In this document: piece after piece, positions 651-32,807 of the stretch
How positions within the stretch are numbered: position 1 is the first letter of the stretch
Layout of the letters: each line of letters opens with the position of its first letter
Virus record (IMG/VR): IMGVR_UViG_3300032007_000084
Location: 1,565 to 65,564 of that record
Reading direction: 5' to 3' (one strand)
DNA: 64,000 bases
Source of the DNA: a virus
Taxonomy: Duplodnaviria; Caudoviricetes
Position numbers and translations under genes: made by a program
The notes under the pieces: generated by a model
What the model was told of the DNA's origin: nothing
The model's database searches: none
What the model saw: the letters and a program-made list of their open reading frames with translations, nothing else

Positions 651-722
651 TCCTCACCCCTTGGTGAAAATTGCCGGGAACGAGACGGGACTAGTAAGAA
701 TCTTTGATTCTGAACGTCCCGT
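651..722 (+). ncRNA. DGR spacer RNA stem-loops between TR and RT
   Basis: Hairpin tcacc(654-658)/ggtga(663-667). Outer stem acgggac(685-691)/gtcccgt(716-722) encloses agaatc-ttt-gattct. Position matches the structured spacer of DGR RNAs. Confidence 0.6.
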
Positions 723-834
723 ACGGTATGCCTAAAGAACAGAATTTTGCTACTTTCAAAATAATTTTCTAATAGAAATAACAAATGATAGTCGAACAAT
801 ATTTTGTTTAAATAATGTGAGGGAGGAAATGCCC

Positions 835-4042: not shown

Positions 4043-4499
4043 CCATTGGCCATTGCTGAGCGGTCATATAACTTAGGAAATAAGAAAAATAAAATAAATT
4101 AAAATAAGATATTAAGTAGTTTGTCGTATTATTATACGGGTAATGAAGTATTTATAGTTGTATACAGCTAATTCCGGCGAAAGCGTTCACACGCTTTCGC
4201 CGGAAAAATATTATATATAGGGAAATTGATGAAAACAACTCGGAATAATGTTAAAGGCGCCGCGATTTATCGCGGCGCCTTTAACCGCAAAATCAAAATT
4301 GTGTAATTAATTATAAACCATATAACACATTAATAGATCTAAACTAAAAATCGTAAAAGGAATAGTTTTGCAGGAATGCCAGTTTTTAACATTTTTTTGA
4401 TAGTTTTTCCTGTATAAGACATAAATAATACTTCATCCTTACGAAAATTCAGTTCTTGGATCAAATAACGAATCAACTAAATTTAAAAAGTCTAAAATA

Positions 4500-14236: not shown

Positions 14237-14711
14237 CCTTTCTATATATCATTATAGCGTTGTCAGAGAAAAAAAAAGAAGCGGGAATGGGTTTGAATTT
14301 ATTTTTCATGAATTTTTCGTACCCGCTTCTTTTTTCTTCTAATAAATTTTTTGAATTCTCTCAAGCAGGAAGGTTTTAGTCAGTTACATATGTATCGTTA
14401 TCCCAATCCATTGTAACTCACCTCCTTCCTACTGGAGATGATTGTAATAGCCGCATTGAAAGGTTTTAAATATTCCTTTCGCGGCTTCTTACAAATGTCG
14501 CTAATTCCGTTACAGAATTTCGCGACTGCAATTTTGATTCCTCCTTTCATGATAGTCATAGAACCACCCCTTCCATGGATCAACATAATCACGGGATTGT
14601 AATTATGATATAAGATACCTGCTTCTCTTATACGCATAAATAATATATATTTAGATTCTTTGATAAATGATTTTGTTTCACAAGAGGATAAAAAGGAAGG
14701 TGTTATACTAT

Positions 14712-16113
14712 ATGAAGATTACACTTCTGAATATTGATAAATTCGTAGAAGCAAATCAACTGGAACGAGTAACCAATCCGATCGTTCTTGACCATACATA
14801 TAAACCAACTGTAGATGGAATTCTCTCTACAGAGATTTTTGGGTCAACGATTCATGCTCGTCGGAACACATTTGCTTATATTGATCTGAATTGTCATGTA
14901 TTACAACCTTTGATCTATAAACAGATGAAGCGATTAGATCGTCGTATTGATGATATTCTCTCTGGAGTGAAAATGTATATCATCGATAAAGATGGTCAAC
15001 TCGTAGAAGATGAAAAAGGCCATACGGGTTCTGAGTGGTTATATGCCAATTGGAATAAGATCAAGTATAAGCATAACAATTCTCCCGAGCATAATACGCG
15101 AGTAGATTTGTTAAACTCTTGCTCCAGGGATCAAATCTTTCAATCGAAAGAGATTGTAATTCCAGCATTCTATCGAGACGTGAATATTCACTCCAATACA
15201 TCTTCAAAACCAGCCATTGAGAAGATCAATGCTCCATATAGTAAGTTGATCCGTTTTGCAGAAATGCTTTCTCAGGGTGATTTTACCTTCAATCTGAATT
15301 ATAACCGCTATCAGATTCAAAAGACGGTGGTTGAGATTTATGATGAATTGAAATCTCGCATTGAGAAGAAGCGTGGATTGATTCGTCAATCCCTTATGGG
15401 TAAATCTGTGGATTATGGTACACGAGTTGTTATTTCGTCTCCGAAGTTTACGGCAGAACGTCCTTCGGAAATGATGGTTGATTTCTTCCATGCGGGTGTT
15501 CCACTTTCATATTGTATTTCTTGCTTTACTCCGTTCTTTGTAGGATGGATTCAGAAGTTCTTAAGCAATGAGTTTGAACGTACTGGTATGAAATATCCAT
15601 ATTACAATACAAAGACGAAGCAAGTAGAACGATTGAAAGTAAAGGATCCATTGATTCAGTTCAACCAAGAAAAAGTGGAAGATATGATGCAGTTATTCAT
15701 CAAATCTCCTTCGAATCGCTTTGATCCAATTATGGTTGAAATGGAAGATGGAGATAAGGAAGCATACCCTATGAAGTTTGGTGGTTTCCAAAGTTCATTA
15801 GGTGATGCGCCAGTAGATCCAGAGAAACAGCGTTACTTCACGTACACGGATCTTTTCTATATGGCAGCGATGGATATTACAAAGGATAAGCATATTTACA
15901 TTACGCGATATCCAATTGCTGGTTTTATGTCAATCTTCCCGATTCGTGTATCTGTTCTTACAACGATGGATACCGTTCATATGAAGATTGGCGATCAAGA
16001 ATTCAAAACATATCCAAAGGTAGATCTTTCCATTCCAAAGGAAAATGTTCCGGATCAATTCATTGAAGTTGTAAATATGCAGAATACATACTTGGATGCA
16101 ATTGGCGGTGACT
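14712..16113 (+). CDS. phage multisubunit RNAP beta' subunit (probably virion RNAP), exon 1
   Basis: GILSTEIFG, VIPAFYRD, LMGKSVDYGTRVVISSP, TRYPI. Ends IGGD+t at the intron. Late-promoter motif at 14679-14690. Confidence 0.88.
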
Positions 16114-16377
16114 TAACAAAATAGGTCCATATATCAGTAATGATGTATGCAAAGCTATCTAATTGCTGGAAACTCTCATTAGAGACAATCAGCAGCCAAG
16201 CTCTAGGTAACTAGAGAAGGTTCAACGACTATTCCGAAAGGAAGTACACGCAAGTGGGTGGAAATGGTAGCCATCCTATTTACATATAGGATGAAGATAT
16301 AGTCTGCTCTATATGGTGACATATAGCAGTTCATAAGAGAACGCATATAGATTAACGACCTATATGGAACACAAAGG
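16114..16377 (+). ncRNA. group I intron (IA2-like, ORF-less, 264 nt)
   Basis: P (aattgctggaaa), Q (aatcagcagc), R (gttcaacgacta), S (aagatatagtct), P7.1/P7.2 hairpins, U.G at the 5' splice site (gact/ggtc) and terminal G. Removal restores GGD-Y-DGDQ. Confidence 0.92.
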
Positions 16378-16568
16378 ATGACGGTGATCAGATTACGGTG
16401 AAGGGTGTCTTTTCACAAGAAGCCAATGCTGAGGCTGAACGTATTATGCATAGTATGGTCAATATCGCAAGTCCAAATTCAACAGCGACACGAACGACAA
16501 CAATTGAAGCAATCCAAACGTGCTATTCAGTGACCCGTTGGGGAGATCCGAAAGAAGTGAAATTTTGA
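16378..16568 (+). CDS. RNAP beta' (virion type), exon 2
   Basis: After splicing reads YDGDQITVKGVFSQEANAEAERIMHSMVNI...EAIQTCYSVTRWGDPKEVKF*. Confidence 0.88.
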
Positions 16569-17077
16569 TGAAGAAATGGAAACGTATAAAAATAAATGAT
16601 TATAAAACTAACTATGAGGTTAGCGTATCAGGAGAAGTACGAAATATTTTTAATAAAGATTCTAATTTGGTTCAATATACAAATAAAGGATACAAGTTTG
16701 TATATTTGTATGGTATAAAAAATGCTACAAATAAACGTCATCGAAAGAAAATGTATGTTCATCGTTTGGTTGCAATTGCATTTTTAAAGAATCCTTTGAA
16801 TTTACCATGCGTAAACCATATTGATCATAACCGTTCAAATAATGATTTATCGAATCTTGAATGGGTTACTGATAGCGATAATATGTATGATATTTATGAT
16901 GGAGGATATAATTCAATTGCACTTTCAACGAAACAGGTAAAGAAAATTTGTATCATGCTTTCATTTCAAATTCCAATGAATTTGATCTCGCTATATCTAA
17001 ATATTCCATATTCAAGAATAAAAGATATTAAACAAAGGAGAGCATGGAAACGAATTTCTAAAGATTATGAGTTCTAA
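16568..17077 (+). CDS. free-standing NUMOD4-HNH homing endonuclease
   Basis: MKKWKRI...YEVSVSGEVRN (NUMOD4) and HRLVAIAFL.NP.NLPCVNHIDHNRSNNDLSNLEWVT (HNH). Start overlaps the RNAP stop (TGATG). Confidence 0.9.
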   Translation: MKKWKRIKINDYKTNYEVSVSGEVRNIFNKDSNLVQYTNKGYKFVYLYGIKNATNKRHRKKMYVHRLVAIAFLKNPLNLPCVNHIDHNRSNNDLSNLEWVTDSDNMYDIYDGGYNSIALSTKQVKKICIMLSFQIPMNLISLYLNIPYSRIKDIKQRRAWKRISKDYEF

Positions 17078-17155: not shown

Positions 17156-17198
17156 ACTGGTAAAAGGTTTGCCAAATCCTGTAGAAAGGAGAACGACT

Positions 17199-20100
17199 AT
17201 GGCAAGAAAACGTGGTGGAAGTTGGGTTGCTAATTTTGGTCGATCGGTTGCATTCGGACTTGGAAATGCAGCGATGGATAATATGACAACCGTTAGATCA
17301 CTGAAAGATGATAATGAAGAATTCATGAAAAACGTCTATGAGACGATGAAGGATATTAAGAATCTTCAGTCAACCATCATTGATAAATACTACGATAGTT
17401 CAGAAGATGCAAAAGAAGTCAAAGATGCTCTGAAAGATCTGAAAGAGAATGGATCGAAGGGCTTTAAGAACTTTTTGAAGAACGGTACCATCGGTCTTTC
17501 CGATGAGGAACGTGAAAAGAATGAAATGAAAGCCTTCGGCATGGAAGACATGGACTTCGATCTCGGAGACTTAGACTCTGGTGAAGATGATCTTGAAAAA
17601 GCGCTTGCTGGGGTAGATGAAGACGAAGATCTTATGACTCCTATGGAGAAAAAGACTTCGGATATTGGAAATGCTCAATTAAAAGCAGTTAATGATAATA
17701 CGCGTGCAGAAGTTGCCATTGGGCAACGGACAGCAAATGCGATTGAAAATGTTGCGAAGGTTACCACGAATCAAACAGAGATTTTGGCTGGTGGTATTGC
17801 CGCAGGAAATAAACTCCAGGCAAACATTGCTGAGTCGAATGCAGCATTGCAAACGGCACTAAGCAATCGTGTGGTTACTGGACTTGGAACGTTGAATGAA
17901 ACCGCGAATAAATTGGTTGCATTCAATACGGATATCATGGGGCGTCAGATTGATGCTTCTATGAAGTTCTATACGGATTCCTTAACGGAATTACAGAAGA
18001 TTAGTTCGATCTTGGAGCGTGCCTTCCCAGAGGATAAGGGTAGAGAACAGAGAGAATCTGCATACTCTGAATCTGGGTTGGATATGGGACGTCTGAATAT
18101 CAATGGGTATTTGAAACAAGTTCGTCGGAACTTTGATGATACCACGGCTGGTATGATGATCAGTCAGTTTGCTGATCCGCAAACGATTAAGATGTTTGCG
18201 GCTGATCCTCTTGGGGTCGGTGCAGAAATGGCATTTAGCTTTATGATGCCAGCCGTCTTAGAGAAATCCATGAAAAAGTTTGATGAATCCATTTCGGAAT
18301 TCATTCCTGCTTTGATTGGTAAGATTACAGATTATGGAGAGAATGGAGAAGGACCATTAACATGGCTGGCGAAACTCTTTGGAGTTCCACTTCCTTCTTC
18401 AAAGATTAACGTTAGAAACTATGAAAAAGGGCCTGTACCGTTCGATGGTATTACACATCGTACGATTAATCAGGTCATTCCAAGATACTTAAGCGAGATC
18501 GTCGGACTTCTTGGCGGAGAACGCATGATGTACGACTACAACGAAGCTCGCTTTAAGACGAATGAAGAAATTAAGAAAGATGTAGATCGTGAAAAAGAAT
18601 CTGATGTGCATATGGCCATGGATTTCGATACCATGGAAAAATATCGCTCAGAATTCAAGAAACTCCGTCATTATGGTGAGGGAGAAAAAGGAAGAAAACA
18701 AGACGAGCAGAATGATAAGGACTTAGAGCGTATTTTCAAAGCCATTGCGATGAGTGGAGAAAATACGATTGATGTAAAGAATATTGGTAAATACTTGGAA
18801 GGAAAGGATATTGGTGCAGAAGCCAAAGCTATCTTCCAAGCGATTACGAATCGAATGGATTATATGGATAAATATCATTTGATGAATGCTCCAAAGAAAT
18901 TTGCTCAGTATCAGTATGATCGTTATGGTCGTCGTGGAAAAACGGACTATAAGTACGATTATATGGCAGATAACTTTGATCGTCGTCGTTCGGAAGATTC
19001 CTTCCATATGAGTGACGAGGAAAGTTATGAACTCCAGAAGCTGATAAAAGAAGAGCAGCGCTCCAAGCAGTATAAAACGGAGATGACAACGCAACAGAAA
19101 AAGCGTTTGAAAGAACTCCGTAAGAAAGAAGAAGAAATTGAAAACGGAACGTATCGTATTGATGAGAAACCGCAAGAAGTGCAGAAGCAAGTTTCCACGA
19201 TTGATAAGATCTTGGAAACGAATAATCAATCCTTAAATGAAATCAAGAGTATCCATGAGCTCTTGTCAAATATGGTAACAAGCGGTTTAAAAGTTATTCC
19301 AATGGGATCGATTCCAGGATACGGTAGCGGAAGACGCCAACGTAGAAGAAGAAATCGAGGAAATGCAAATGTTCCTCCAATTCCTCCTGCACCAGAACAA
19401 AATCCATCTACAAATGAAGCAAATAATTCAGAAGTCTTAACTACAGAAGAAAATCCATATAATGCACCGAAAGGTTTCGATAGTGAAGGTCGTATTACAA
19501 TCAAACAGGATGATTCTAACGATATTGAAGAACTTTTGGAAAATGCATTGGAAGAAGGACTTAATAAATCTGGTGTAAATCAAGACTGGGTTTCTGATTT
19601 CCAAGATAAACTAGATGAAATTGCAAGTAATGAAAAAGATAAAGAAGAAGAAAAGAAAGAAGCAGAGCAAGAAAAGAAAGAGGAAGAAGGACGAGAGGAA
19701 AACTTCTTGGATCGATTCATGCAAATGCTTCATTCTCCAATTCAAACGGTTGCTGTATTCATGGATAAAGTGAGTGCTGGGCTGTACAATCTTTTCTTTG
19801 ATACAGAGGGAAATAAAGATTCCATTGTAAAAACGTTAAAATCTTCATTTGATGATCTTGTAAAAGGAATAAAAGATACGTTACATGAAGAATTTTTCAA
19901 TCCATTGAAGAATTTTGTATATAAAGATATTATGGAAGGTGGTCTTCGTAATAGTGTTAATAATACAATTACGAAGGTTCGTAATTTCTTTACAGATGCA
20001 TTTGAAGAAGACTATGAAGAAGAAAAACCAACCGTTAGAAATGTAAAAGGAGAAAATGCGGAAAATGCTCCAACCGCAGCATTTGGTAGAATTCTTTCTT

Positions 20101-23100
20101 TTGCATTTGGTGGTAAGATTACAGATGCTGAATTAACAGAAAAACGTAAAATGGCAGCAAAGTCTGCTAAAAATGGTGGACCATGGGTTCGTATTAATCA
20201 AACAAAGAAAGTTAAGATTAATGGGAGAGATGTTATCCTTCATAAAGGAGAGTATTATAATCCGAAAACGTCGGAAGTAATTCCAACGTCAAATGATGAA
20301 GGAAATCTTAGATCCGATCAAAAAGAAGAATATCGTTATGCAGATGGCGATGGGTTGAATGAATATATTAAGAAATATATGAAAGAAAATGGTTTTGATA
20401 AGAATGATGGATTCAATCCAAATAATCAAAACCAAAAAGTTGCGAATAATATTGAAAAGATTGCTGAAAATACGAAACAAACAACAGAAGCCGTTGATAA
20501 GCAAACGAATAAGATAGATCAGCAGAAAAAAGAAGAAAAGAAAGAAGCGCAAGAAAAGAAAACTCCAAATAGTATCAAAGAGAATGTAAAATCCCTCTTT
20601 GGAGAAATTAAAGATGACCTTTCCATGTATATCTTCGGTAAGAATACCGATAAATACGGAAAGCAAAAACCACTTGTAAATCAAATCCAAGATATGTTTG
20701 CTGTTGGTACGAAGAAGTTTAACAATTTCTTCTTTGGCCAAACGGAATACGATTCGAAAGAATCTATGGATCAGTATAAAGAATCCTTTAAGAAGTCGCT
20801 TCCGAAAGGAATTGCAAGAGGACTGGTATTTGGTGGTGGATTGACTGCAATCTCTGCTGCTGGAGGATTTGGTCTTCTTGGTTCTCTCTTCCTTCCAGGT
20901 GGTCCGATTGGTTCTGTTATTCTTGGTATGGGCATCGGATTGTTGAGTGAAAATCGGAAGCTGAAAGATTGGCTTTTTGGACCTGCTGATGAAAACGGTA
21001 ATCGCAAGCAAGGTGGCGTTGTACCGAAATCTTTCATCAACTTCTTCCAGAGAAATAAGAAAACGATTATTGGTGCAGGTGCTTTTGGTACCTTGCAAGG
21101 AATTACTGGTATTAGTGTCATTGGTTCTCTTCTTAGCTTACTTCCTGGTGGCATGGGCGGAGCAATTGGGTTCCTTCCTGGACTGGGTGTAAGCATCATT
21201 GGACCGACGGTATTTAGTATCGCTGCGGCTATGGCATTTAAGAGTAACCGTGTACAGAATATTCTCTTTGGTAAGCCAGACGAAAAGACTGGTAAACGTA
21301 TTGGCGGAGTATTGCAGAGTGAGAGTGCAAAAACTCTTAGAAAGCAATTACCTTCTATCGTTACAGGAGCCGCTATTGGCGCAGGTTCCTCCCTCGTTCT
21401 TGGAAACATGGGTATTCTTGGAAGTTTGGCTCTTGGTCCATGGACCTCTGCTATTATTGGTGGAGCAATTGGCTTTGGATTGACTTCTAAGAAGTTCAAA
21501 GAAGCACTATTCGGTAAGCAAGATAAAAATGGTAATTTTATTAGTGGCGGTATTGTAGACCGTATGAAGAAATTCTTCAAGGTTGAATTCTATAATAAAT
21601 TTGCAAATTTCCTTGCAAAACAACGTGTAGAGTTTAAGAAATTCTTCCAACTTCGTTTATTGGATCTGAAGAAAATCTTTACTCCTGCAAAATTGCTTGG
21701 AAAGCAAATTCTTGAAGGTGCAAAGAAATCCATTAAAAATGTTTTTGATATGATTACGGGTCAGGTAAAGAGTATCTTTAGCCCGATCTTGAAACCATTC
21801 CAGAAAGCATTTAGTTGGTTATTCCATACGGTAATGGATGCAGGTAGTTCCATTGCAAATGCTAGTATGAGTGTTGCAAGAGGATTGATTACTGCTCCAT
21901 TGAAACTTGTTACCGCGCCATTCAATTTGCTTGGTCGTCATTATCGTAAGAACGGTACAGATGAACAGAAAGCTGCAATGGCTGAAGCGGATAAGAAAGA
22001 TGCAGAAGCGAGAGAACGCATTCAAAAGCAATACGAGTCTGAAAAACGTATTATGGAGAATGCAAATCGAGCTCGTGATATTGAAACGGATAATGCTAGA
22101 AAGCATGGATATAAGTTAAGCCCTGAAGAACTTGAAGAAAAAACTAGAAAATGGCAAGCTGAGCAAGAAGCACTTGCGAATTCCAAAAAGCAAGTGGAAA
22201 TGCATGAGCAAAGTAATGAAATCTTAGATGCAATTCTTCATAGAGCTGAATCTATTGAGGAAGAATTAAAACGGAATGCATCGATTGATCGCCAAGTTTC
22301 TCGTCAAGGGAAAGTAAGATCTACTATTAAGACTAATAAACGTCGTCGTAATTTGATTCAAGCGGTTCAAAATAATAAAACGTTTAATGCACAAACTGCA
22401 AATGCAGGGATGGAATTTGCTGGAAAAGCTTTGTCTGGAGAAGATCGTGATGAAGCATCTTATAATGCAATTAGTAAAATGCTTCTTCGCCTTGGAAGAA
22501 GTAAGAAAGGTAAAAAGCGGGATAAGTTAATTTCTCGTATCAGTGGTTTAAGTAAAAAATCTGTTTATAATGTTTTGAATAAAATGCAAGCGAAAGGAAC
22601 GGATGTTAGTTCCATTTCGAAAATCTTTGGTCATGTAACTTCTGAAGGAAAACCAACCTCAGAAGATGAACCGCATGCATTTGGTTTCCTTTCAGATATT
22701 GCTGGAGCTGCAAAGAGTCTTTTTGGAGCAAAAGATGCAGTCTCGTCTGCTCTTCAATCTGCTCATACAAAAGATGCAATTGGCCAAGGTATTATTGAAG
22801 GAAATAAAACGAATAATAAGATGAAAGATACGGCAACTTCAAATCGTAGAGAGCGTAGACTTTCTACAGGTGAAATTGCACCAGCTTCATCAGATCAGGG
22901 TAACAATAAAAATGCACAAAAGAGAGAAATGCGGAATGGATTCGCTGATTTTGTAGAAAAAGCATTTGGTGTTACAAAAGGAGTTGCTCAATCTATTGGT
23001 ACTGCACTTGGTGCTGCTGGTGGAAAAGCAAAATCTTGGGTAAAAGAACGTAAAATTGATAAGGGCTTAACTGCTCAAGGAATTAAAGAAGCTAGAAAAG

Positions 23101-26100
23101 AAGAAAGTTTCCGTCAGCAACTTCTTGCGGCTCTTCGTGAAGGTCGTCAGATTATGCTTGGTGGAGATAAAAAGAAAGAAAGCTTGCTTTCTGATATCTT
23201 GGATATGCTGAAAGGTGCTGGTGTACTTGGAGCAATTCTTGCTGCATTGAATGCACTTTCTCGCATCTTAAGTGGTAAATTTGGTGGTAATTATCATGAT
23301 ACACGAGTTGTTCGTGATCTTGCTCAAGGAGCTCTTCAAACAGAGCTTGGTCAAAAAGCGAAGAAAACAGCTCGTGAAAAACTTGATAAGGCAGCCAAAG
23401 TAATGAAAGAAAAAATGAAAGCTGCAAGAGACCTGATTAATGAAAAAGGAATTGGAAAGACTTTCATGGAAAACACGATGATTGGTCGTGGACTTAATCG
23501 TTTTGTAGTCCAACCTGTAAAGAAAGTGAAGAACGGTGTACAGGAAGGCTATCGTGCAGTTAAAAAAGGCGTAACAAATAAGATTGATGAAATTGCATTG
23601 CAAATGAAGTATGGACCAAGAGATCTTCTCTATGATAATGATAAAGGAGAAATGGTCCATAAACGTTGGAATAAAAATTATGTTGATCCTGAAACTGGGA
23701 AGAAATTTGGTAAATATATTGAATCAACGGATGGAAGTTTACATGATATTCAATGGATGCGTGAGCAGGAAAAAGCCGCTGGAAGAGCACCTGATCAAGC
23801 AAGGAAAGATATGTATAAGAATATTCGGGCGAAAGCCGCAAAGCTTACAAACCCGTTTGGAATTCGTACGAAACTTTCTGAGTTCGGAGGAAGAATGTAT
23901 AAAGCTGGATCCGAACCGTTTAAGAAAGCATGGAATGGATATACTACGAAATCAGGAAAACAAGTTGCAGGTGTAAAGAAAATTGGTAGATTTGCTCGCG
24001 ATGCTGCAAAGAAAGGTGCTAAAAAAGCAGCTAATTTTTCATTAGAAGCAACGAAAATTGCTGGAAAATTAGCACTTGCTGGTGCATTTTCTCCTATTAC
24101 AGCAGGATACTTTGCCGCAAAAGGAGGAAAGAAACTTATAAATCTTGCAGAAAATAAACTTCCTGCGATGATTGAAAAAGGAAAAAATGAAATTGGAAAG
24201 TTTGCATCATGGGTGGCTAGTTCTGATACTGTAAAAAATGCTAAGAAAGGAATTCGTAGTGTAAAGAAAGGTATTGGAACTGCAAAGAAAGCAATTAGTG
24301 ATGAAGTAGGTTTGATTTATAAAGAAGGAAAAGAAAATGTTGCTAGAAGATATGGAGCTGCAAAGAAAGCAGTTGGAAACCAGATTGAAAAAGTAAAAAA
24401 TCTTCCAAAGAAAGCTTGGAACAGTAAAGTTGTTAAGAAAGCAAGATTTAATGTTGAAACGACAAAAGAAATCCTGCAAAAGCGGGCATCTGATAAAATT
24501 TCTGATATCAGCAAAGCTGTTGGAGGATACGCAGATTCTGTTGTAGGATGGTTTAGTCGTAAGAAGAAAGATATTGTTAAAGAATTAGATAAGGTTACCA
24601 TTCATGGTACCGAATTGACAAAGATTCCAGGAGCTCTTGCGAAGCAAGCGGAAACAGAAGCCGCTACTATCTTTGGCATGGTTCGTTCAGGAGGAGCACA
24701 ACTTGCTCAATCTGGACCAATTCAAGCAATGATGAGCGGTGTTCGTACAGCAGCTAGTGTTGCTGTTGCTCCGTTTAAAGCTGTTGGCGGAATGGGAATG
24801 GAGTTGTATCGTTCTGGTGCCCATGCACTGGAATCGATTGGTAAAGCAGGAGCTGAAGCTGCTGAAGAAGTTGGAGAAAAAGCTGCGGAAGCAAAGGCAA
24901 CTTTCACTTCGTTTAAAGATATGCGCTCAAAAATCGTAAAAGAAGCGAAAGGTGGATTGCAGAAATTCAAATCTTTGGCTACAAAAGCAATTTCGTTTAT
25001 TACGAGTAATGAAACAGTTCAGAAGTTCCTTGGAGGAGACGGTGGAGGAAAACTCGCTGAGAAATTCAAGGGAGTTCTTGAAAAAGTTGGACCAAAAGAA
25101 TTCGCAAGTATTGCAAAGAAAGCTGCAACGGCAGCTGCAAAAGTAGCTGGAACTGCTGTAACTCTTGGTTTGTCACAATTAGCATTTTCTGCTTATGATG
25201 CGTATTCTGGTGTAACAGATGCCGCAGAAATGTGGGGAGTTCTTCCAGAAGACTGCACAGCAGGAATGAAAACGGCTGCTGCAATTTTGAATGTTATCAT
25301 GGGTCTTGGACCGATGGTTTATGTTGATCTTGCATTTGAGGCTGTTTATCTTGGAACGTCTATGTTGGGTCAAAGTGACCCGATCAATATTAAACGTGAA
25401 ATTTTGCTGATGATTTATGAATGCTTGCCTGATTCTTATGATGAAGAAGAAGTCAAAGGATTGCAGGATAAAGCAAACTCTGATTATGAAAATTATTTGA
25501 TGGAGCAATATAAGCAAATGACTGGTGCCACGGATGAGCAAATTGCTGGAATGTCTGCGGAACAAAAGAAGCAGGCAATGGAGCAAGCTCAGCAGAATGG
25601 TGCAAAATCAAAAGACGATTATTTGGCTGAAAAGAATGATGCTCATACTCCAGTAATGGATGAAATTCGTGGAACTACACTTGGTTCCTGGTTGTTTGGT
25701 TCAAATGATGAAAATGGTAATTACCAACCTGGATTCTTCTCGAATGCGAAAGACTTCTTGCTTGGTAATCGTAAGAAAGGTCAAAAGAGTGTATTTGGAC
25801 GTGTTTCGGATGCTCTCTTTGGTACGGGTGAAGAAGATGAAAATGGTGATGTCGATAAAGGAATCATTGGAACTGCAAAAGATAAGATAACTGGTTTTGT
25901 TACTGGTATTGGCAATTTCTTTGGTGACATTGGAGACTTTTTGTTCAAAAAATCGATGGATGAAAAGCTTACAATGATTTGGAAATATTTTATTGGTGGT
26001 AATGATGAAAATGGTGAATATCAAATTGGTGTTTTTCCGAAGATTTGGGGAAAGATTAAGGATTTTGGTAATTCTGTATTTAAATTCTTTGATGATATTG

Positions 26101-29100
26101 GAAAGAATTTTGATCAAGCATTGAATACGGATACCGTTGGTAATTCTATCAATCCGATTGGTAGAGCCTTCAGTATCGTAGCAAATGTTGTTCGCGGAAT
26201 GCTTGGATTGGATATGACACAGTCTCCGATTAAAGATAGCATTTCACAGTTCTTGCACATGGATTCGTTTGGTCCATTTACAACTTTCTTTAATTGGATG
26301 GGCGATACGTTTGATAATACCATTGGTTACATGGTAAATGAGATTACTGATAAAGGTGCGATTGCGGGTACCTGGTCAATCATTAAATCCATAGGTCAAG
26401 GTATTTGGAATTGGATTGATAGTGGAACTACTGGAGGTGCAATTGATACTGTTTCGGATGCAGTTAGTGATTGGGCTTCTGGTATTTCAGATACCTTCCA
26501 TAATATTATGGGATGGTTTACAGAACTTTATGATGGAGTATCCAAGGCAGATACTCTTGGAGCAAAATTTGATGTCGTAAAGAATATGTTAAAGGGTCTC
26601 TTTGGTGTTAAGCCAGATGAAGATTTTCTTTCAACAGCATTCGGTAAAATGCAAAAAGCGATTGGTGATGCTTTTGATACAATAAAGCAAAAATGGAATG
26701 ATATTAAAGATTGGTGGGATAAGTTCGATCCTAAGCAGATTTTCTGGGATGCCATGAAGAAAGCTTTCCCGAAATTCACGGAAGCACTGGATGATACGAA
26801 AGCCCGTTGGGAACGAGAACATTCCGAAGATAAAGGAACTGGAATTTATTCTGGCTCTGGTTATAGTAGAACTGCAACCATTCGTGGTGCAGCGAATATT
26901 ATGAAGAGTTATGGATTTAATCCGAATGCTTCTGGATCTGGAAATAGTGAATATGGTACATATACACAGAATGATAGTGCATGGGGTTCAAAACGTACCA
27001 TTGCAAATGGTTCGATGTCACAAGTTGGTTGTGGTCCGACTACGCTTGCAAATGGTATGAATTCAGCATTTGGTTTGAATATGACTCCTATGCAAGCTGC
27101 TAGTCTGATTCAACCAGGTGATCTTCCTGTGGATGGATCTCCTGGAGTAACTGCAAATTACTTCCCCGAGGCAGTGAATGCTCTTGGTGGAGAATATATT
27201 GGTTTGGATCCGAATAATCCTCGTAGTGTAGAAGCTGCTTTGCAATCTGGCTTTACCATGGTTGCTGGTGGCAAATCCATGGATAATGGAACGTCCCAGG
27301 CCTTTACGGCTGGTGGGCACTATACGATGCTCAAAGGTGGATATACGAAGGGTGGTATTCCTTATACGTACTCTTATGATCCACTGGGCGGGAATCGTGA
27401 AAAACCGATTGCTTTGGATCGGGTACTTCGTGATGTCAATCGCGAAGGTGGGCCGAATATGATTGGTATGATTGCACCAAAGGGTACAGATGCATCTGCA
27501 TTTGATGGAGTCAGTTTCAATAACCCGATGTATCAGTATAATGGATTTGGTAGTGGTACGGGTGATTCCGTTGATAAGATCGGTCTGTTTACACAAAACT
27601 TTGCTACGATTATGAAAGATTATGCGATGGCTGGTTTACTTGGGAAACCATACACAGGATCTGTGTTGAATGATGGTAGTAACCACAGTGGTTCAAATTC
27701 ATCTTCTTCTACAATAAATCCTGGAAATGTATCGGGTGACTATAGAAGTATTGTAAATGGTTTGATGCAGCTTGGATTTACGAAGGTTGCTGCTGCTGGT
27801 ATTGCTGGCAATATCATGCAGGAATCGAGTATGGATCCAAATGCAGATAATGGATCGCATCATGGTCTCGTTCAATGGGATCATGCAAATCGTTGGGCAA
27901 GTGCTGTTGCTTGGTGTCAATCTCATGGATTGGATCCGAATAGCATTGGTGGCCAATTAGCATACGTTGCTGAGGAATGCAAACAAAGTGGTTTGTTCAA
28001 TCAAATGAATGCTTGCTCTTCTCCGGAAGAAGCAGCTCGTCTGTTTGAAGCAGAGTTTGAACGCTCTGGAGGTTCTGAAGTTGGTAAACGTATTAAGTAT
28101 GCGAATGAAGCATTTGCACAAGCTGCTGGTTCTGGACTTCATGGAGGATCAGGACTTTCTCGCGTAAAGAATATTGTTAGTAGGTATATTGGAAGAAGAT
28201 CTTCTGGTACTGGTACAGATAACTGGGCAGAGCAAACCGGAGGAGTTAGTTCCGATGGTGCTCAACCTCAGACGATGGCTATGCTGGATGATCTTGGTGC
28301 TTGGTTTAAGGGTAAAACAGGTCATAAACTGGTTGTTACTGCAATTACGAATGGTAGTCATGCAAGTGGTGAATTCAGCCATGCAAATGGTTGGAAAGCT
28401 GATGTCAATGACTGGTCTGGTCCTGAAGGATTGACTGGTGGTTGGATTCTCGGTGATGGCGGAGCGGAAGTTCCAGGTTCACTTGCTGCTCAATTTGAAG
28501 AATATGGTAACTCCAAGGGTGTTGGAGTTAACTGGGAAAATGATCACTTTGATCTTTCTGCTGCTGGTGATCAATGGGCTGATCCATTACACAGCGGCGG
28601 TAAGACAGGAAATCTTGGTGGATATAACGGTGACGGAAAAGCAACTCCGACATCGGGGAAATCAAGTAGTGGTTCTACAGGTGGAGCAGATCCATGGTCT
28701 ACCTTTATTGCAAATATTGGTACGATTGGTAAAGATTACGCAATGGCTATGCTTGGTGGAAAAGTATATCAGGGCTCGCAATTGCAAACACCTGGATCCA
28801 ATTCTGGACCAAGTGGAAGCAGTGGAAATTATGGCTCTGGTACAGCAGATCCTGATGTGGCAAAAATGCCATATGGTGAAGCTGCGAATAAAGTAGCTGT
28901 GAAATTTAATATGCCTGCAAAACTTGTGTATGCACAAATGCAGCATGAGACAGGTGACTTTGCAAATCCTGGAACGAGTTTCCATAATTACTCTGGCATG
29001 AAATTTGATTGTAACAATGGTCTTGGAACAACTGATGACGGATATACAATCTTTAACAATGATGATGAATGGGTTGATTACTACGGTAAAACACTCGCGA

Positions 29101-32100
29101 ATGAACCAGGTATTCATGAAGCGCATGATGTAGCTTCTTGGGCTCATGCTCTTAAAGAGGGTGGGTATTACGAAGCTACTGAATCCGAATATGCAAATGG
29201 AATGAATAGTTGGATGAAGCAAAATGGTTGGGCTGGTGGTTCTGGTATGGGACTCTCAGCAACTCCATATGGACCATTAACGGCTTCACAAGCAATGATT
29301 AAGAAGTTTGATGATAACGAACAGAAACGTTATGAAGAACTTCGTAAGAAGTATCCGAATATGGATTTCAACCTTCGTGGTTGGAGAGATCGTGATCATC
29401 TTGGTGATAAAGGTAATGCGATTTATCAATCTCCATGGCAAGGAGGGATCGATCAGATTCGTCATGCACAATGGAGCAATGATGGACCAATTACCATGGC
29501 AAAGACTTCTCGGATTGAAGAATTGACGAACCGTTATGGTTTGAAATACGATGACTATGGTAACCTCATTGGTTATGACGGTCCGGATTATAATAAGATT
29601 GATGGTACAGAAGATCAAAATGTGAAGTATAGTAAGCAGGCACAACAGATTGCATTGTATTTGGAGAAGCATCCAGAAGTTGCGAATCAGCCGTCTGCAA
29701 ATGCGATTGAAGCTCCGAAATCTACGGAGGTTCCAAATAATGTAGCGAATGCATCCGTGCAGAAGAATATCCAAAAGGCGAATAATCTCATTGATGAGAG
29801 TACAACCTTCGGAGATTGGACAGCCCGGATGGTAAAGAAATATGGATTAACGTTTGATGAAAATAATAACTTGAAAGAATTAGAAGGTAATATTCCAGAT
29901 GAAATCAATAATACTGGTGTTACGGATTTGGCTACTGTTTATGAAAATGAACGGAAGCAAATGATACTTTGGATTCAAAAGAATCCGAATGGGAAACCAA
30001 GAACCGTAAAAGATATTGAACTCGCAATTAGTCGTGGAATCATCAAATCAGATGACATTAAACGTTATATTTCTCAGTATGGAATTAAGTTTGATCAGCG
30101 TTTGAATGTTCAGATGCCAGATTATACAATTCCGGAAGAAATTAAGATTACAGGTAGTGAAAAGACAGAAGAAGAGATTTACCATAAACAAGGTCTTCAG
30201 ATTCTTGACTATGCACAGAAGCATGGAACGAAGTTGAAGATGCGTCGTTATGGAATTGAAGATTCTGTCTGGGCAAAGCAGCATGGCTATTTTGACGCCA
30301 ATGGGAAACCAACACAACAGTTGTATGGGAAGACAGCCGGTGTCGATGAGGAAGGTTACCTCGTTGATCAGAACGGAATTCGTACACATGCATACAGCCA
30401 GAGAAATGGTGGTCATTACAGCATTGATTCTCGTGGTAGAGTGCATCGTCGTGGATTCTGGTCGAAGCTGTTCCCGAATCTTTCCGATGCTTGGTATCGC
30501 ATGAAGGATAATCAGGCGTATAATAAAGAATGGAATCGTCGCAGGAGTGCTGGAGAAATTCCAGGTGCTGTTCTCAGCTATTCTGGATCTGGTCTTGCTA
30601 ATCAGCAATATTATCGTGATTCTGCTGCGCAATATGGGATTCCTAATGATGTGGTTGAGAATTGGGTCAAGATGGACCAAGGAATCAGCGCAAAATGGGA
30701 TGACTTTAAAGCAAGAGTTAAAGCAAATGGTGGAGTTCTCACTCCAGAATTATTGCAAGAGCAGAAAGCTCTTCGTCATGAGAATGGTTTAATTGCTAAT
30801 CAGATTGGTAAAGAACGTCGTAAGTATACGGATGGTAAACCAAGTATTCCTTCTTATGATACACAAGTTCAAAATACAGTTGATAAAATGAACAAAGCGC
30901 CTGCATATTCAAATATGCCAGATGCTCAAAAGAAAGCAATGGCTGGCAGAACAGCTCAGGTGAATGCTAGAATTGCTGAAGCGAAAGCTAAGCAAGCAAC
31001 ACCTCCAGTAGTTGCTCAAAAACCAGTTGCAAAACCGGTAGAAGTTGCAAAGAATGATTTACCAACACCGAAAACAGTGCAAGAAATTAAAGCTCAGCAT
31101 AATGCAAAACTTGTTGAAATGGCTCAAAAAGCTAAGATTACAGAATCTGCGAATACTGTAAAGAAAAATGATATTACAACTCCAATGCAAGAAGCAGTTA
31201 ACACGGCAACGTCGTCTAATAAAAAAGATGCGCTTTCTGGTGTAGATACTTCTGGCGATTGGACTGCCCGTATGGTTAAGAAATATGGATTAAACTTTGA
31301 TGAAAATAATAATTTGAAAGAACTTGGAAAGAATATACCAGATGAAATTAATAATACAGGTGTTAATGATTTAAATACCATTTATGAAAATGAACGGAAG
31401 CAGGTTATGGAATGGATTCGTAAGAATCCAAACGGAAAACCAAAGTCTGCGAATGAAATTGAAACAGCTTTTAAGCGTGGTTTGATTAATCAGGATACAA
31501 TTAAGAAATATACGGAAAAGTTTGGACTTAAATTTGATGAAGCATTGAATGTATCAATGCCAGATTATGAAGTCCCAGAAGAAATGAAGATTACTGGAAA
31601 CGAGAAAGATGAAAATGAAATTTACCATAAACAAGCGCTTCAAATTGCTGACTATGCGCAAAAGCATGGTGAAAAATTGAAGATGCGGAAATATGGTATT
31701 GAAGATTCTGTGTGGTATAAGAGGACACATGGAGATGTGTCAGATTATGGAAAGACAGCTCGTGTCGATGAAAACGGTAACTTGGTTGACGCTGCTGGAT
31801 TGCAAACACATGCGTACACGCAACGCCATAAAGGACATTACACGGCTGACTCTCGTGGTAGAGTTCATCGTCGTGGTTTACTGTCGAAACTGTTCCCGAA
31901 CCTCTCTGATAAATGGTATCGGATGAAGGATAATCAGGAATACAATAAGCAGTATAATGCGAAGATGAAAGAAATCAAGCAGAATGGTATTGAAGCAACT
32001 GTTGAGAAAGATAAAGCGAATAAGATTGAAAGTGATACGAATACGATCAAATCGATTGTAAGTCGTTATAAACTGACTCCCGATGATTTCGATAGTTATG

Positions 32101-32807
32101 GAAATTTGACAAAGATGGAAATTCCACCGGAGTTGAAGATTGATGGAACGGAAACCTCTGATGAGATTAAGTATCATAAGCAAGGGGAACAGATTCGTCT
32201 CTATGCGAAGATGCATGATGTGGAGCAAAAGACGAATGAATCTGTTACCAAAGCGGCAGATGCAAAGATCGAAGAAGTTTCTCAGAATATGGAGAAAGCA
32301 GTTTCTCAGGAAACAGCAGCAAAAACTTCTCCTGAGGTGAAGAATGCTCCATTGTCTCCTGAGACGATGAATGGAAATAACACTGTAACTGCTACCGGTA
32401 CAACTGCTGCGAGCAATGTACTTGGCAATGCATCAAGGGTCGATCGTTATATTGCAGAGAATAGTGCTGCAACCATGGATGCTCTGATTAATGAAGTTCA
32501 GAAATTGGATATCCATAGTGAAATGAATACGTTGATTGGATGCATGAATACCTTGATCAAAAATCAGGTAGAAGGTGCAAAGATCATTAGTAAAGCTTCC
32601 TCATCCAACGGAAACGCTGGTTCTGGGATGGCAGATGAAGCCTTAAGGGCGATGAGTAAGAATGTTCAGAATAACCGTTCGATTGCTCCTCCTCCGGCAC
32701 AAGGCCATGGAGGAAATAAGACGAATATTAGTAAAGGAAATGATCCATCGGCAACTCATCAGAAAGCCATGCAAATGGCAATGGGTGGTCAGATGGCAGC
32801 AGGCTGA
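17199..32807 (+). CDS. giant tape-measure / virion-associated multi-enzyme lysin (~5,200 aa)
   Basis: AAGGAG RBS before ATG 17199. Long helical and Gly-rich hydrophobic regions. C39-like peptidase (YTQND..GCGPT, ~26961-27478), phage tail lysozyme (GIAGNIMQES..GLVQW, ~27759-28125), M15-like peptidase (SHANGWKAD..DHFD, ~28280-28565) and GH73-like glucosaminidase (AQMQHETG..NYSGMK..GGYY, ~28881-29228). Confidence 0.85.
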   Translation: MARKRGGSWVANFGRSVAFGLGNAAMDNMTTVRSLKDDNEEFMKNVYETMKDIKNLQSTIIDKYYDSSEDAKEVKDALKDLKENGSKGFKNFLKNGTIGLSDEEREKNEMKAFGMEDMDFDLGDLDSGEDDLEKALAGVDEDEDLMTPMEKKTSDIGNAQLKAVNDNTRAEVAIGQRTANAIENVAKVTTNQTEILAGGIAAGNKLQANIAESNAALQTALSNRVVTGLGTLNETANKLVAFNTDIMGRQIDASMKFYTDSLTELQKISSILERAFPEDKGREQRESAYSESGLDMGRLNINGYLKQVRRNFDDTTAGMMISQFADPQTIKMFAADPLGVGAEMAFSFMMPAVLEKSMKKFDESISEFIPALIGKITDYGENGEGPLTWLAKLFGVPLPSSKINVRNYEKGPVPFDGITHRTINQVIPRYLSEIVGLLGGERMMYDYNEARFKTNEEIKKDVDREKESDVHMAMDFDTMEKYRSEFKKLRHYGEGEKGRKQDEQNDKDLERIFKAIAMSGENTIDVKNIGKYLEGKDIGAEAKAIFQAITNRMDYMDKYHLMNAPKKFAQYQYDRYGRRGKTDYKYDYMADNFDRRRSEDSFHMSDEESYELQKLIKEEQRSKQYKTEMTTQQKKRLKELRKKEEEIENGTYRIDEKPQEVQKQVSTIDKILETNNQSLNEIKSIHELLSNMVTSGLKVIPMGSIPGYGSGRRQRRRRNRGNANVPPIPPAPEQNPSTNEANNSEVLTTEENPYNAPKGFDSEGRITIKQDDSNDIEELLENALEEGLNKSGVNQDWVSDFQDKLDEIASNEKDKEEEKKEAEQEKKEEEGREENFLDRFMQMLHSPIQTVAVFMDKVSAGLYNLFFDTEGNKDSIVKTLKSSFDDLVKGIKDTLHEEFFNPLKNFVYKDIMEGGLRNSVNNTITKVRNFFTDAFEEDYEEEKPTVRNVKGENAENAPTAAFGRILSFAFGGKITDAELTEKRKMAAKSAKNGGPWVRINQTKKVKINGRDVILHKGEYYNPKTSEVIPTSNDEGNLRSDQKEEYRYADGDGLNEYIKKYMKENGFDKNDGFNPNNQNQKVANNIEKIAENTKQTTEAVDKQTNKIDQQKKEEKKEAQEKKTPNSIKENVKSLFGEIKDDLSMYIFGKNTDKYGKQKPLVNQIQDMFAVGTKKFNNFFFGQTEYDSKESMDQYKESFKKSLPKGIARGLVFGGGLTAISAAGGFGLLGSLFLPGGPIGSVILGMGIGLLSENRKLKDWLFGPADENGNRKQGGVVPKSFINFFQRNKKTIIGAGAFGTLQGITGISVIGSLLSLLPGGMGGAIGFLPGLGVSIIGPTVFSIAAAMAFKSNRVQNILFGKPDEKTGKRIGGVLQSESAKTLRKQLPSIVTGAAIGAGSSLVLGNMGILGSLALGPWTSAIIGGAIGFGLTSKKFKEALFGKQDKNGNFISGGIVDRMKKFFKVEFYNKFANFLAKQRVEFKKFFQLRLLDLKKIFTPAKLLGKQILEGAKKSIKNVFDMITGQVKSIFSPILKPFQKAFSWLFHTVMDAGSSIANASMSVARGLITAPLKLVTAPFNLLGRHYRKNGTDEQKAAMAEADKKDAEARERIQKQYESEKRIMENANRARDIETDNARKHGYKLSPEELEEKTRKWQAEQEALANSKKQVEMHEQSNEILDAILHRAESIEEELKRNASIDRQVSRQGKVRSTIKTNKRRRNLIQAVQNNKTFNAQTANAGMEFAGKALSGEDRDEASYNAISKMLLRLGRSKKGKKRDKLISRISGLSKKSVYNVLNKMQAKGTDVSSISKIFGHVTSEGKPTSEDEPHAFGFLSDIAGAAKSLFGAKDAVSSALQSAHTKDAIGQGIIEGNKTNNKMKDTATSNRRERRLSTGEIAPASSDQGNNKNAQKREMRNGFADFVEKAFGVTKGVAQSIGTALGAAGGKAKSWVKERKIDKGLTAQGIKEARKEESFRQQLLAALREGRQIMLGGDKKKESLLSDILDMLKGAGVLGAILAALNALSRILSGKFGGNYHDTRVVRDLAQGALQTELGQKAKKTAREKLDKAAKVMKEKMKAARDLINEKGIGKTFMENTMIGRGLNRFVVQPVKKVKNGVQEGYRAVKKGVTNKIDEIALQMKYGPRDLLYDNDKGEMVHKRWNKNYVDPETGKKFGKYIESTDGSLHDIQWMREQEKAAGRAPDQARKDMYKNIRAKAAKLTNPFGIRTKLSEFGGRMYKAGSEPFKKAWNGYTTKSGKQVAGVKKIGRFARDAAKKGAKKAANFSLEATKIAGKLALAGAFSPITAGYFAAKGGKKLINLAENKLPAMIEKGKNEIGKFASWVASSDTVKNAKKGIRSVKKGIGTAKKAISDEVGLIYKEGKENVARRYGAAKKAVGNQIEKVKNLPKKAWNSKVVKKARFNVETTKEILQKRASDKISDISKAVGGYADSVVGWFSRKKKDIVKELDKVTIHGTELTKIPGALAKQAETEAATIFGMVRSGGAQLAQSGPIQAMMSGVRTAASVAVAPFKAVGGMGMELYRSGAHALESIGKAGAEAAEEVGEKAAEAKATFTSFKDMRSKIVKEAKGGLQKFKSLATKAISFITSNETVQKFLGGDGGGKLAEKFKGVLEKVGPKEFASIAKKAATAAAKVAGTAVTLGLSQLAFSAYDAYSGVTDAAEMWGVLPEDCTAGMKTAAAILNVIMGLGPMVYVDLAFEAVYLGTSMLGQSDPINIKREILLMIYECLPDSYDEEEVKGLQDKANSDYENYLMEQYKQMTGATDEQIAGMSAEQKKQAMEQAQQNGAKSKDDYLAEKNDAHTPVMDEIRGTTLGSWLFGSNDENGNYQPGFFSNAKDFLLGNRKKGQKSVFGRVSDALFGTGEEDENGDVDKGIIGTAKDKITGFVTGIGNFFGDIGDFLFKKSMDEKLTMIWKYFIGGNDENGEYQIGVFPKIWGKIKDFGNSVFKFFDDIGKNFDQALNTDTVGNSINPIGRAFSIVANVVRGMLGLDMTQSPIKDSISQFLHMDSFGPFTTFFNWMGDTFDNTIGYMVNEITDKGAIAGTWSIIKSIGQGIWNWIDSGTTGGAIDTVSDAVSDWASGISDTFHNIMGWFTELYDGVSKADTLGAKFDVVKNMLKGLFGVKPDEDFLSTAFGKMQKAIGDAFDTIKQKWNDIKDWWDKFDPKQIFWDAMKKAFPKFTEALDDTKARWEREHSEDKGTGIYSGSGYSRTATIRGAANIMKSYGFNPNASGSGNSEYGTYTQNDSAWGSKRTIANGSMSQVGCGPTTLANGMNSAFGLNMTPMQAASLIQPGDLPVDGSPGVTANYFPEAVNALGGEYIGLDPNNPRSVEAALQSGFTMVAGGKSMDNGTSQAFTAGGHYTMLKGGYTKGGIPYTYSYDPLGGNREKPIALDRVLRDVNREGGPNMIGMIAPKGTDASAFDGVSFNNPMYQYNGFGSGTGDSVDKIGLFTQNFATIMKDYAMAGLLGKPYTGSVLNDGSNHSGSNSSSSTINPGNVSGDYRSIVNGLMQLGFTKVAAAGIAGNIMQESSMDPNADNGSHHGLVQWDHANRWASAVAWCQSHGLDPNSIGGQLAYVAEECKQSGLFNQMNACSSPEEAARLFEAEFERSGGSEVGKRIKYANEAFAQAAGSGLHGGSGLSRVKNIVSRYIGRRSSGTGTDNWAEQTGGVSSDGAQPQTMAMLDDLGAWFKGKTGHKLVVTAITNGSHASGEFSHANGWKADVNDWSGPEGLTGGWILGDGGAEVPGSLAAQFEEYGNSKGVGVNWENDHFDLSAAGDQWADPLHSGGKTGNLGGYNGDGKATPTSGKSSSGSTGGADPWSTFIANIGTIGKDYAMAMLGGKVYQGSQLQTPGSNSGPSGSSGNYGSGTADPDVAKMPYGEAANKVAVKFNMPAKLVYAQMQHETGDFANPGTSFHNYSGMKFDCNNGLGTTDDGYTIFNNDDEWVDYYGKTLANEPGIHEAHDVASWAHALKEGGYYEATESEYANGMNSWMKQNGWAGGSGMGLSATPYGPLTASQAMIKKFDDNEQKRYEELRKKYPNMDFNLRGWRDRDHLGDKGNAIYQSPWQGGIDQIRHAQWSNDGPITMAKTSRIEELTNRYGLKYDDYGNLIGYDGPDYNKIDGTEDQNVKYSKQAQQIALYLEKHPEVANQPSANAIEAPKSTEVPNNVANASVQKNIQKANNLIDESTTFGDWTARMVKKYGLTFDENNNLKELEGNIPDEINNTGVTDLATVYENERKQMILWIQKNPNGKPRTVKDIELAISRGIIKSDDIKRYISQYGIKFDQRLNVQMPDYTIPEEIKITGSEKTEEEIYHKQGLQILDYAQKHGTKLKMRRYGIEDSVWAKQHGYFDANGKPTQQLYGKTAGVDEEGYLVDQNGIRTHAYSQRNGGHYSIDSRGRVHRRGFWSKLFPNLSDAWYRMKDNQAYNKEWNRRRSAGEIPGAVLSYSGSGLANQQYYRDSAAQYGIPNDVVENWVKMDQGISAKWDDFKARVKANGGVLTPELLQEQKALRHENGLIANQIGKERRKYTDGKPSIPSYDTQVQNTVDKMNKAPAYSNMPDAQKKAMAGRTAQVNARIAEAKAKQATPPVVAQKPVAKPVEVAKNDLPTPKTVQEIKAQHNAKLVEMAQKAKITESANTVKKNDITTPMQEAVNTATSSNKKDALSGVDTSGDWTARMVKKYGLNFDENNNLKELGKNIPDEINNTGVNDLNTIYENERKQVMEWIRKNPNGKPKSANEIETAFKRGLINQDTIKKYTEKFGLKFDEALNVSMPDYEVPEEMKITGNEKDENEIYHKQALQIADYAQKHGEKLKMRKYGIEDSVWYKRTHGDVSDYGKTARVDENGNLVDAAGLQTHAYTQRHKGHYTADSRGRVHRRGLLSKLFPNLSDKWYRMKDNQEYNKQYNAKMKEIKQNGIEATVEKDKANKIESDTNTIKSIVSRYKLTPDDFDSYGNLTKMEIPPELKIDGTETSDEIKYHKQGEQIRLYAKMHDVEQKTNESVTKAADAKIEEVSQNMEKAVSQETAAKTSPEVKNAPLSPETMNGNNTVTATGTTAASNVLGNASRVDRYIAENSAATMDALINEVQKLDIHSEMNTLIGCMNTLIKNQVEGAKIISKASSSNGNAGSGMADEALRAMSKNVQNNRSIAPPPAQGHGGNKTNISKGNDPSATHQKAMQMAMGGQMAAG
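29811..31949 (+). repeat. internal ~235-aa duplication (29811-30527 and 31254-31949)
   Basis: Both copies begin GDWTARMVKKYGL and end RVHRRG..SKLFPNLSD.WYRMKDNQ.YNK, with many synonymous differences. Confidence 0.92.

Follow-up and report, generated by a model that had tools for sequence, protein, structure and literature searches.

Analysis of a 64,000-nucleotide (nt) stretch of phage DNA, hereafter the window (positions 1,565 to 65,564 of IMG/VR record IMGVR_UViG_3300032007_000084), identified two group I introns that interrupt the genes of two remotely related RNA polymerase (RNAP) beta' paralogs at the homologous nucleotide of their catalytic DxDGD motif. Intron 1 (16114-16377, + strand, 264 nt) splits the gene for the N-terminal half of the virion RNAP (vRNAP) beta' subunit, here termed gene 1, and intron 2 (58279-58532, + strand, 254 nt) splits the gene for the corresponding half of the non-virion RNAP (nvRNAP) beta' subunit, here termed gene 2. 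Both are devoid of open reading frames (ORFs), and we take them to be true sisters, each the closest relative of the other among the introns sampled. We consider it probable that they are selfish mobile introns of the IA2 type, which moved from one paralog to the other at some earlier time and have since been kept or re-acquired by allelic homing at a motif that acts as an insertion hotspot.

Two group I introns in the catalytic motif of both beta' paralogs

Both elements were recognized by the Rfam group I intron model RF00028 on the + strand (full model, positions 1-253), with 107.4 bits for 16104-16326 and 93.0 bits for 58269-58481 against a gathering score of 50 bits. The two insertions are in phase 1, with the first base of the Y or F codon preceding the intron (GGD^YDGD in gene 1 and NAD^FDGD in gene 2). 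In gene 1, exon 1 (14667-16113, + strand) ends with GGT GAC T at T16113, and exon 2 (16378-16568, + strand) starts at A16378 with AT GAC GGT GAT and continues in frame to a TGA stop codon. Likewise, exon 1 of gene 2 (56925-58278, + strand) ends with GCT GAC T at T58278, and exon 2 (58533-58711, + strand) starts at T58533 with TT GAT GGC GAT and runs in frame to a TAA stop codon. Once the introns are removed, the metal-binding motifs DYDGD (gene 1) and DFDGD (gene 2) are whole again. Translation of the unspliced messages would instead read GGD-LTK-stop and NAD-LTY-stop, terminating three codons into the intron.

The splice sites present the features of group I introns. In both elements P1 is formed by exon GACU and intron AGGUC, the 5' splice site being marked by a U.G wobble (U16113.G16124 and U58278.G58290), and a terminal G is present at the 3' splice site (G16377 and G58532). 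RNAalifold returned a canonical P1-P9.2 architecture, IA2-like in intron 1 and with P7.1/P7.2 and P9.x extensions, in which 73 of 73 pairs form in both introns. Eight pairs show double-sided compensatory changes (two in P3, two in P7.1 and four in P9.2), against none when the pairing partners are slid, a weak control, given that no more than two sequences are compared and that these also supplied the structure. One-sided changes occur in pairs of P2 and P3, P6a and P8 differ in length only, and P7.2 presents no double-sided change. The data indicate that both elements are real group I introns, and self-splicing is predicted, from their structure and from the intronless alleles described below, to restore the three-aspartate motif.

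These results bear out most of a preliminary description made from the letters of the window, which had proposed twin group I introns at the same codon position of both paralogs, had placed their ends exactly and had described the early stop codons of the unspliced messages, and had proposed a comparison with group I covariance models. Its list of helices with compensatory changes is correct for P3, P7.1 and P9.2 and has to be shortened by P6a, P8 and P7.2. It had also described the host proteins as only remotely related, in agreement with the 25% identity over 107 amino acids (aa; E = 4e-7) detected here between the exon 1 products of the two genes. The exon 2 sequences show no relation to each other outside the motif.

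Intronless and alternative alleles of both genes

The predicted ligated exons are matched by natural intronless alleles, both as contigs (L006 for gene 1, L115 and L116 for gene 2) and as proteins (P0001, P0241 and P0258). Protein P0001 is 99% identical to the product of gene 1 exon 1 and reads without interruption across the insertion site (...AIGGDYDGDQITVKG...). L006, the contig encoding it, aligns with the window at 95.5% identity up to exactly position 16113, resumes at 96% identity past an HNH endonuclease gene located downstream of gene 1, and presents GGTGACT followed directly by ACGATGGTGAT at the site, with no intron 1. For gene 2, contig L115 presents GCTGACT followed directly by TTGACGGCGAT, with no intron 2, and L116 likewise lacks this intron. 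Three proteins from the same 90%-identity cluster as gene 2 (P0258, P0264 and P0265) read ...SLNADFDGDTLNHVLLLGKEF..., with a C-terminal end identical to that of the predicted spliced product. Because these natural alleles break exactly at the predicted sites, both junctions can be considered validated.

The 90%-identity clusters of the two genes contain several forms of each protein. The cluster of gene 1 includes intact proteins of 530 and 534 aa and proteins ending in GGDLTK-stop, whilst that of gene 2 includes an intact form of 510 aa, a 454-aa form truncated by an ORF-less intron and a 459-aa form truncated by an HNH-bearing intron. At the very nucleotide occupied by intron 2, contig L105 carries a different intron with an HNH gene in P6. 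The same catalytic site is hence found empty, with an HNH-bearing intron and with an ORF-less intron in one phage population, providing a natural example of the mobile-intron life cycle; to this the window adds another intron, sister to the ORF-less one, which sits in the paralogous polymerase gene and is coupled to a free-standing endonuclease. Four contigs from other samples (L117-L120) are 100% identical to the window.

The gene 2 cluster also contains forms of 419 and 431 aa, which correspond to two further interruptions at an LNRNP motif. The conserved LNRNP(T) motif constitutes a second interruption hotspot in the nvRNAP beta' gene, with at least two different read-through tails within one 90% cluster; the homologues cut there include P0124, P0129, P0130, P0136, P0138-P0140, P0260-P0262 and P0266-P0268. 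A third hotspot of this gene lies after an EGL motif.

Each intron is located at a step in similarity between the window and the corresponding allele without the intron. In gene 1, exon 2 matches L006 at 162 of 188 positions (86%), compared with 90-99% in flanking segments of 200 nt (about 95%), and the encoded protein differs by one residue; this exon is a probable co-conversion tract. In the gene 2 region, L115 and L116 match the window at 97.1% identity left of the insertion site; on its right the value is 86-88% over a distance of more than 2 kb, which places intron 2 at an apparent recombination boundary. Because of these steps, the comparison suggests that each intron was imported from an allelic donor and not from the paralog. 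In addition, 9 of the 18 bases immediately 5' of the intron 2 site differ from those of L115, all of them synonymously, which could reflect either co-conversion or escape from nuclease recognition. The differences within 58257-58278 include a switch between serine codon families, and the alternative version is common to the intronless L115 and the HNH-intron allele of L105.

Kinship of the two introns and their wider family

Introns 1 and 2 are 84.8% identical over 257 nt and 83% identical over their full length, having diverged by about 17%, and no other sampled member of the family exceeds 75% full-length identity to either of them. A tree built from 36 full-length members of the family recovered the pair with an ultrafast bootstrap (UFBoot) support of 94, at a maximum-likelihood distance of 0.20, compared with at least 0.51 to any other intron. 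The two agree at 88% of positions over their first 92 nt, and each shares only 65-71% with the introns found at the same sites in L105 and L107. Since introns 1 and 2 are each other's closest relatives among those sampled, a jump between the paralogs at some earlier time would best explain their origin.

The preliminary description had also drawn attention to tracts of perfect identity between the two introns, and those of 58 nt (16289-16346 and 58444-58501) and 33 nt (16171-16203 and 58337-58369) are exact and maximal. The 21-mer GCAGTTCATAAGAGAACGCAT, taken from the longer tract, was detected at 98 IMG/VR loci (L007-L104), in many unrelated genes, and in five copies in the jumbo phage AR9, and because of this breadth the 58-nt tract appears to be largely a conserved core of the whole family. 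L075, located in a different gene, matches the identical tract at all but 3 of 54 positions. Introns of one genome also group together elsewhere in the tree, as seen for four introns of AR9 (support 91) and three of L100 (support 98), and spread or exchange within one genome hence appears to be a general trait of the family.

Several other aspects of the family emerged from these comparisons. Its P9 and P9.2 hairpins belong to a small set of recurring, interchangeable variants: intron 1 has the same P9.2 as L008, L021 and L052, and that of intron 2 lies 2 nt away from that of the AR9 g145 intron. The base following GTCT covaries with the base following ATGGAA. A 20-mer common to the P1-P2 region of both introns had no match in IMG/VR and a single chance match in JGI metagenomes (L114), which was ruled out as a relative, since it lacks any similarity to the window and does not constitute an intron. 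The introns of L105 (gene 2) and L107 (gene 1) were considered as a second intron type present in both paralogs; this candidate was dropped, given that their 5' 90 nt are 71% identical and hence no closer to each other than to the introns of the window.

A free-standing HNH gene beside intron 1

Directly downstream of gene 1 lies a free-standing gene (16568-17077, + strand) encoding a 169-aa HNH endonuclease, the ATG of which overlaps the beta' stop codon (TGATG). The protein matches Pfam HNH_3 with 31.2 bits (cut-off 24.8) and NUMOD4 with 16.7 bits, below the cut-off of 23.4. Across its full length it shows 33% identity to the HNH protein encoded within the L105 intron (E = 6e-26), and it is 43% identical over about 105 aa to AR9 g271. 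The gene is located 190 nt from intron 1, which contains no plausible ORF of its own. Both are missing from L006 and both are present in L119, although, L119 being 100% identical to the window, this amounts to effectively one informative contrast in presence and absence. The arrangement supports a case of collaborative homing, with a predicted role for the nuclease. The divergence pattern described above for exon 2 is what would be expected of a joint import, in which a more diverged donor allele supplied intron 1, exon 2 and the HNH gene at once.

No endonuclease gene adjoins gene 2, the neighbours of which are a DHH-family gene and a 108-aa ORF. The single HNH protein encoded at 16568-17077 might serve both ORF-less introns by cutting the shared site in intronless alleles of either paralog, its relaxed specificity having enabled the jump between them. 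We regard this proposal as doubtful; if true, one nuclease would drive homing at two paralogous essential genes located 42 kb apart.

The DxDGD motif as a hotspot for intron insertion

Interruption at the DxDGD motif is frequent among relatives of both genes. Approximately 40 of 120 homologues of gene 1 and 22 of 120 homologues of gene 2, all of them cluster representatives, end within the motif. The truncation points lie before the D and after D, Dx, DxD and DxDG, and both paralogs are cut at most of these positions. Other intron types occupy D^F in contigs L112 and L113, one of them with a GIY-YIG gene, and L106 has an intron near the same site, for which no in-frame 3' junction with a terminal G was found. 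The DxDGD motif of both beta' paralogs is therefore, to judge from these homologues, a general hotspot, targeted at several positions by several lineages of introns and nucleases. This has a bearing on annotation, as about one third of the sampled gene 1 homologues and one fifth of those of gene 2 look truncated at the motif.

Occupancy of the two genes varies among relatives. Among five related isolates, both genes are uninterrupted in Goe21 and BpSp, and PBS1 and Internexus present tblastn hit profiles that match that of AR9. In metagenomic relatives single occupancy is common.

Origin and mobility of the introns

The reading that we favour as probable can be outlined as follows. The shared AGGUC internal guide would pair with exon GACU, and splicing would restore the DxDGD motif. 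The HNH nuclease would cut intronless alleles of gene 1 at the conserved site, and the ensuing repair would bring in the intron together with exon 2 and the nuclease gene. One sub-lineage of the family would have jumped between the paralogs by virtue of their near-identical target, TGACT^(A/T)(T/C)GA(C/T)GG(T/C)GAT; a nuclease of relaxed specificity could have brought this about, or else reverse splicing with the same guide of 4-5 nt. After the jump, each intron would have been retained, or regained, through ordinary allelic homing. Because intronless alleles of both genes circulate, we read the introns as dispensable, and as selfish elements rather than regulators.

Several points weigh against this reading. 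Each event could be either a gain in the window or a loss in the relative, and phage mosaicism alone could have put similarity breakpoints near the insertion sites. The splicing of both introns rests on inference from their structure and from the intronless alleles, and the nuclease activity and target of the HNH protein are predicted only; the homologues of this protein, one of them 90% identical and all others at or below 51%, are uninformative on its target specificity. The closest introns at the same sites, those of L105 and L107, are known only for their 5' 85-90 nt, so that the sister relation is incompletely sampled, and the timing of the jump is uncalibrated.

The preliminary description had proposed a more specific event, namely recent ectopic copying of one intron into the other paralog within this very genome. 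The mutual affinity of the introns, their common guide and exon GACT, their long identical tracts and the same-genome clustering seen in AR9 and L100, which makes within-genome spread seem recurrent, are all compatible with such an event. Nonetheless, the two introns differ by about 17% and by eight compensatory pair changes, whereas alleles diverged by only 3-5% already differ in occupancy. Each intron is moreover flanked by a block diverged by 13-14% from the intronless allele, which fits import from an allelic donor, and the identical tracts coincide with the family-wide core, as illustrated by L075. A transfer between paralogs at some time stands as the best reading, but its placement in the recent past of this genome is, in our assessment, unlikely. 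The mosaic distribution of identity between the introns, with P4-P6 and P7-P9 identical and P9.2, P7.1 and P3 strongly different, could alternatively reflect two independently acquired family members that were partly homogenised by gene conversion between the loci, in a form of concerted evolution. The matches of their P9.2 hairpins to different introns (L008, L021 and L052 for intron 1, the AR9 g145 intron for intron 2) would agree with this, since modules seem to have been exchanged. The identical tracts are, however, also the most conserved across the whole family, and the family-variable 5' P1-P2 region is 88% shared by the pair and found nowhere else, which is better accommodated by common descent. 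We hence deem homogenisation improbable.

A shared position and phase would also be expected if a single ancestral intron had been inherited vertically from before the duplication that gave rise to vRNAP and nvRNAP. The paralogous proteins are nevertheless only 25% identical over 107 aa against 83-85% for the introns, most homologues of both genes are uninterrupted, and occupancy is polymorphic among alleles that are more than 95% identical. Vertical descent was therefore rejected, and we assign it next to no probability. The preliminary description had listed vertical descent, together with common double occupancy in this phage group, among the findings that would speak against a transfer. 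On the latter the evidence is divided: both paralogs are occupied in AR9, and apparently alike in PBS1 and Internexus, but single occupancy is common in metagenomic relatives. That description had further suggested that the paired introns make both transcription machines dependent on splicing, as a selected regulatory device acting either as a shared GTP/Mg-dependent checkpoint or through exon swapping, with chimeric beta' subunits generated by trans-splicing. The early stop codons of both unspliced messages, which would deprive the products of two of the three aspartates, and the shared guide sequence, which makes reactions in trans chemically conceivable, can be cited in its favour. Yet intronless alleles of both genes occur in the same phage population, and neither gene is interrupted in Goe21 and BpSp, so that the introns must be dispensable; the exon 2 sequences are unrelated beyond the motif, and a candidate early promoter element that, of the two genes, precedes only gene 2 suggests different times of expression. 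No evidence for a checkpoint or for exon swapping was found in these comparisons, and we consider a regulatory device of either kind very improbable.

Host genes and genomic context

The window covers nearly the whole of a 65.5-kb IMG/VR record, estimated to represent about 26% of a genome, and its source is an uncultured AR9/PBS1-like jumbo phage, distantly related to AR9 and PBS1. In tblastn searches, gene 1 exon 1 showed 36-38% identity to the vRNAP beta' N-terminal subunit of AR9 (g145), BpSp and Staphylococcus jumbo phages, and gene 2 exon 1 showed 31-33% identity to the nvRNAP beta' N-terminal subunit of AR9 (g270) and phiR1-37 (g274). The latter exon also matches the Pfam family RNA_pol_Rpb1_2 (32.8 bits). 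Single-protein scans of IMG/VR with either exon 1 returned no relatives. Because homologues begin with MKITLL, the true start of gene 1 is likely the ATG at 14712 rather than position 14667.

The 12-mer AATATATATTAT, a candidate early promoter element, is located about 70 nt upstream of gene 2 (56846-56857, + strand). Eight exact copies are present in the window, against 0.03 expected, at positions 7072, 9255, 14640, 36456, 48038, 55739, 56846 and 60131, one of them preceding a tubulin gene; no copy lies upstream of gene 1 on the + strand. Because only gene 2 is preceded on its own strand by this element, the two genes may be expressed at different times. In AR9 the nvRNAP genes are reportedly early and the vRNAP genes late.

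The HNH gene is directly followed by a single ORF of 5212 aa (17169-32807, + strand), and in L006 the same giant gene stands beside the uninterrupted beta' gene. Downstream of gene 2, the segment 58837-61350 (+ strand) encodes a DHH/DHHA1-family protein (424 aa) and then a tubulin/PhuZ-like protein (396 aa), an order that is kept in L115. Finally, an RT-18 RNA (RF03021) was matched at 655-739 (+ strand; Rfam, 49.7 bits against a gathering score of 41.3).

Comparison with known systems

The introns described here belong to a known kind, that of mobile group I introns in active-site codons of phage polymerase genes, and reveal no new mechanism. The closest parallel is AR9, in which, as in the window, the N-half beta' paralogs of both the vRNAP and the nvRNAP of one jumbo phage are interrupted by group I introns within the DxDGD-coding sequence. 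According to junctions derived from GenBank record KU878088, AR9 g145 is split as GGDYD^GD, 5 nt downstream of the site used in the window, with an RF00028 match over the 3' end of the intervening sequence, and g270 is split as SGDYDG^D, 8 nt downstream of that site, with no Rfam call and a readable group I core. The g145 intron belongs to the same family as those of the window, with which it shares the 21-mer and a near-identical P9.2. The AR9 introns nonetheless occupy two different positions, each with an endonuclease ORF (Hef-like in g145 and HNH in g270), in contrast to the ORF-less sisters found at one identical position in the window. The first intervening sequence of AR9 g145 (L005, - strand, 2748-2832 and 4072-4245) is instead a group II intron (Rfam; D1-D4, 80.7 bits; D5/6, 55.2 bits), and g147, the ORF inside it, bears the GenBank annotation 'group I intron VSR'.

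The arrangement at gene 1 resembles collaborative homing, which has reportedly been described for the psbA intron of cyanophage S-PM2 and the adjacent free-standing endonuclease F-CphI, with a related case said to exist in the gene that encodes the DNA polymerase of T7-like phages. As in S-PM2, an essential gene carries an ORF-less intron at a conserved site and is followed immediately downstream by a gene for a free-standing endonuclease, and, as in collaborative homing, natural alleles have either both intron and nuclease gene or neither. Unlike S-PM2, the predicted nuclease of the window is of the HNH/NUMOD4 type, and a second sister intron is located 42 kb away in the paralog, with no nuclease gene beside it.

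Related IA2 introns are also known from the DNA polymerase genes of the Bacillus phages SPO1, SP82 and Bastille, with the endonucleases I-HmuI and I-BasI, and from the td, nrdB and nrdD genes of T4. The window is akin to these systems in that related introns with HNH nicking endonucleases target a single conserved motif at neighbouring yet distinct positions in related phages, and in that related introns reside in several genes of one genome. It differs from all of these in that its targets are two paralogs, entered at the homologous nucleotide.

Within jumbo phages, a multisubunit RNAP gene has previously been identified as a target of an intron-encoded nuclease. In PhiPA3, the HNH protein gp210 is encoded by a group I intron next to conserved aspartates and introduces a nick into the homologous gene, free of the intron, of a phage infecting the same cell (Birkholz et al. 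2024, PMC11620839). The introns of the window could hence be relevant to competition between phages through intron nucleases, of the kind shown for PhiPA3. The two systems differ in that the PhiPA3 intron occupies a single site in the vRNAP beta gene and encodes its own nuclease, whereas the window presents ORF-less sister introns at one homologous site of both beta' paralogs and a free-standing nuclease gene beside one of them.

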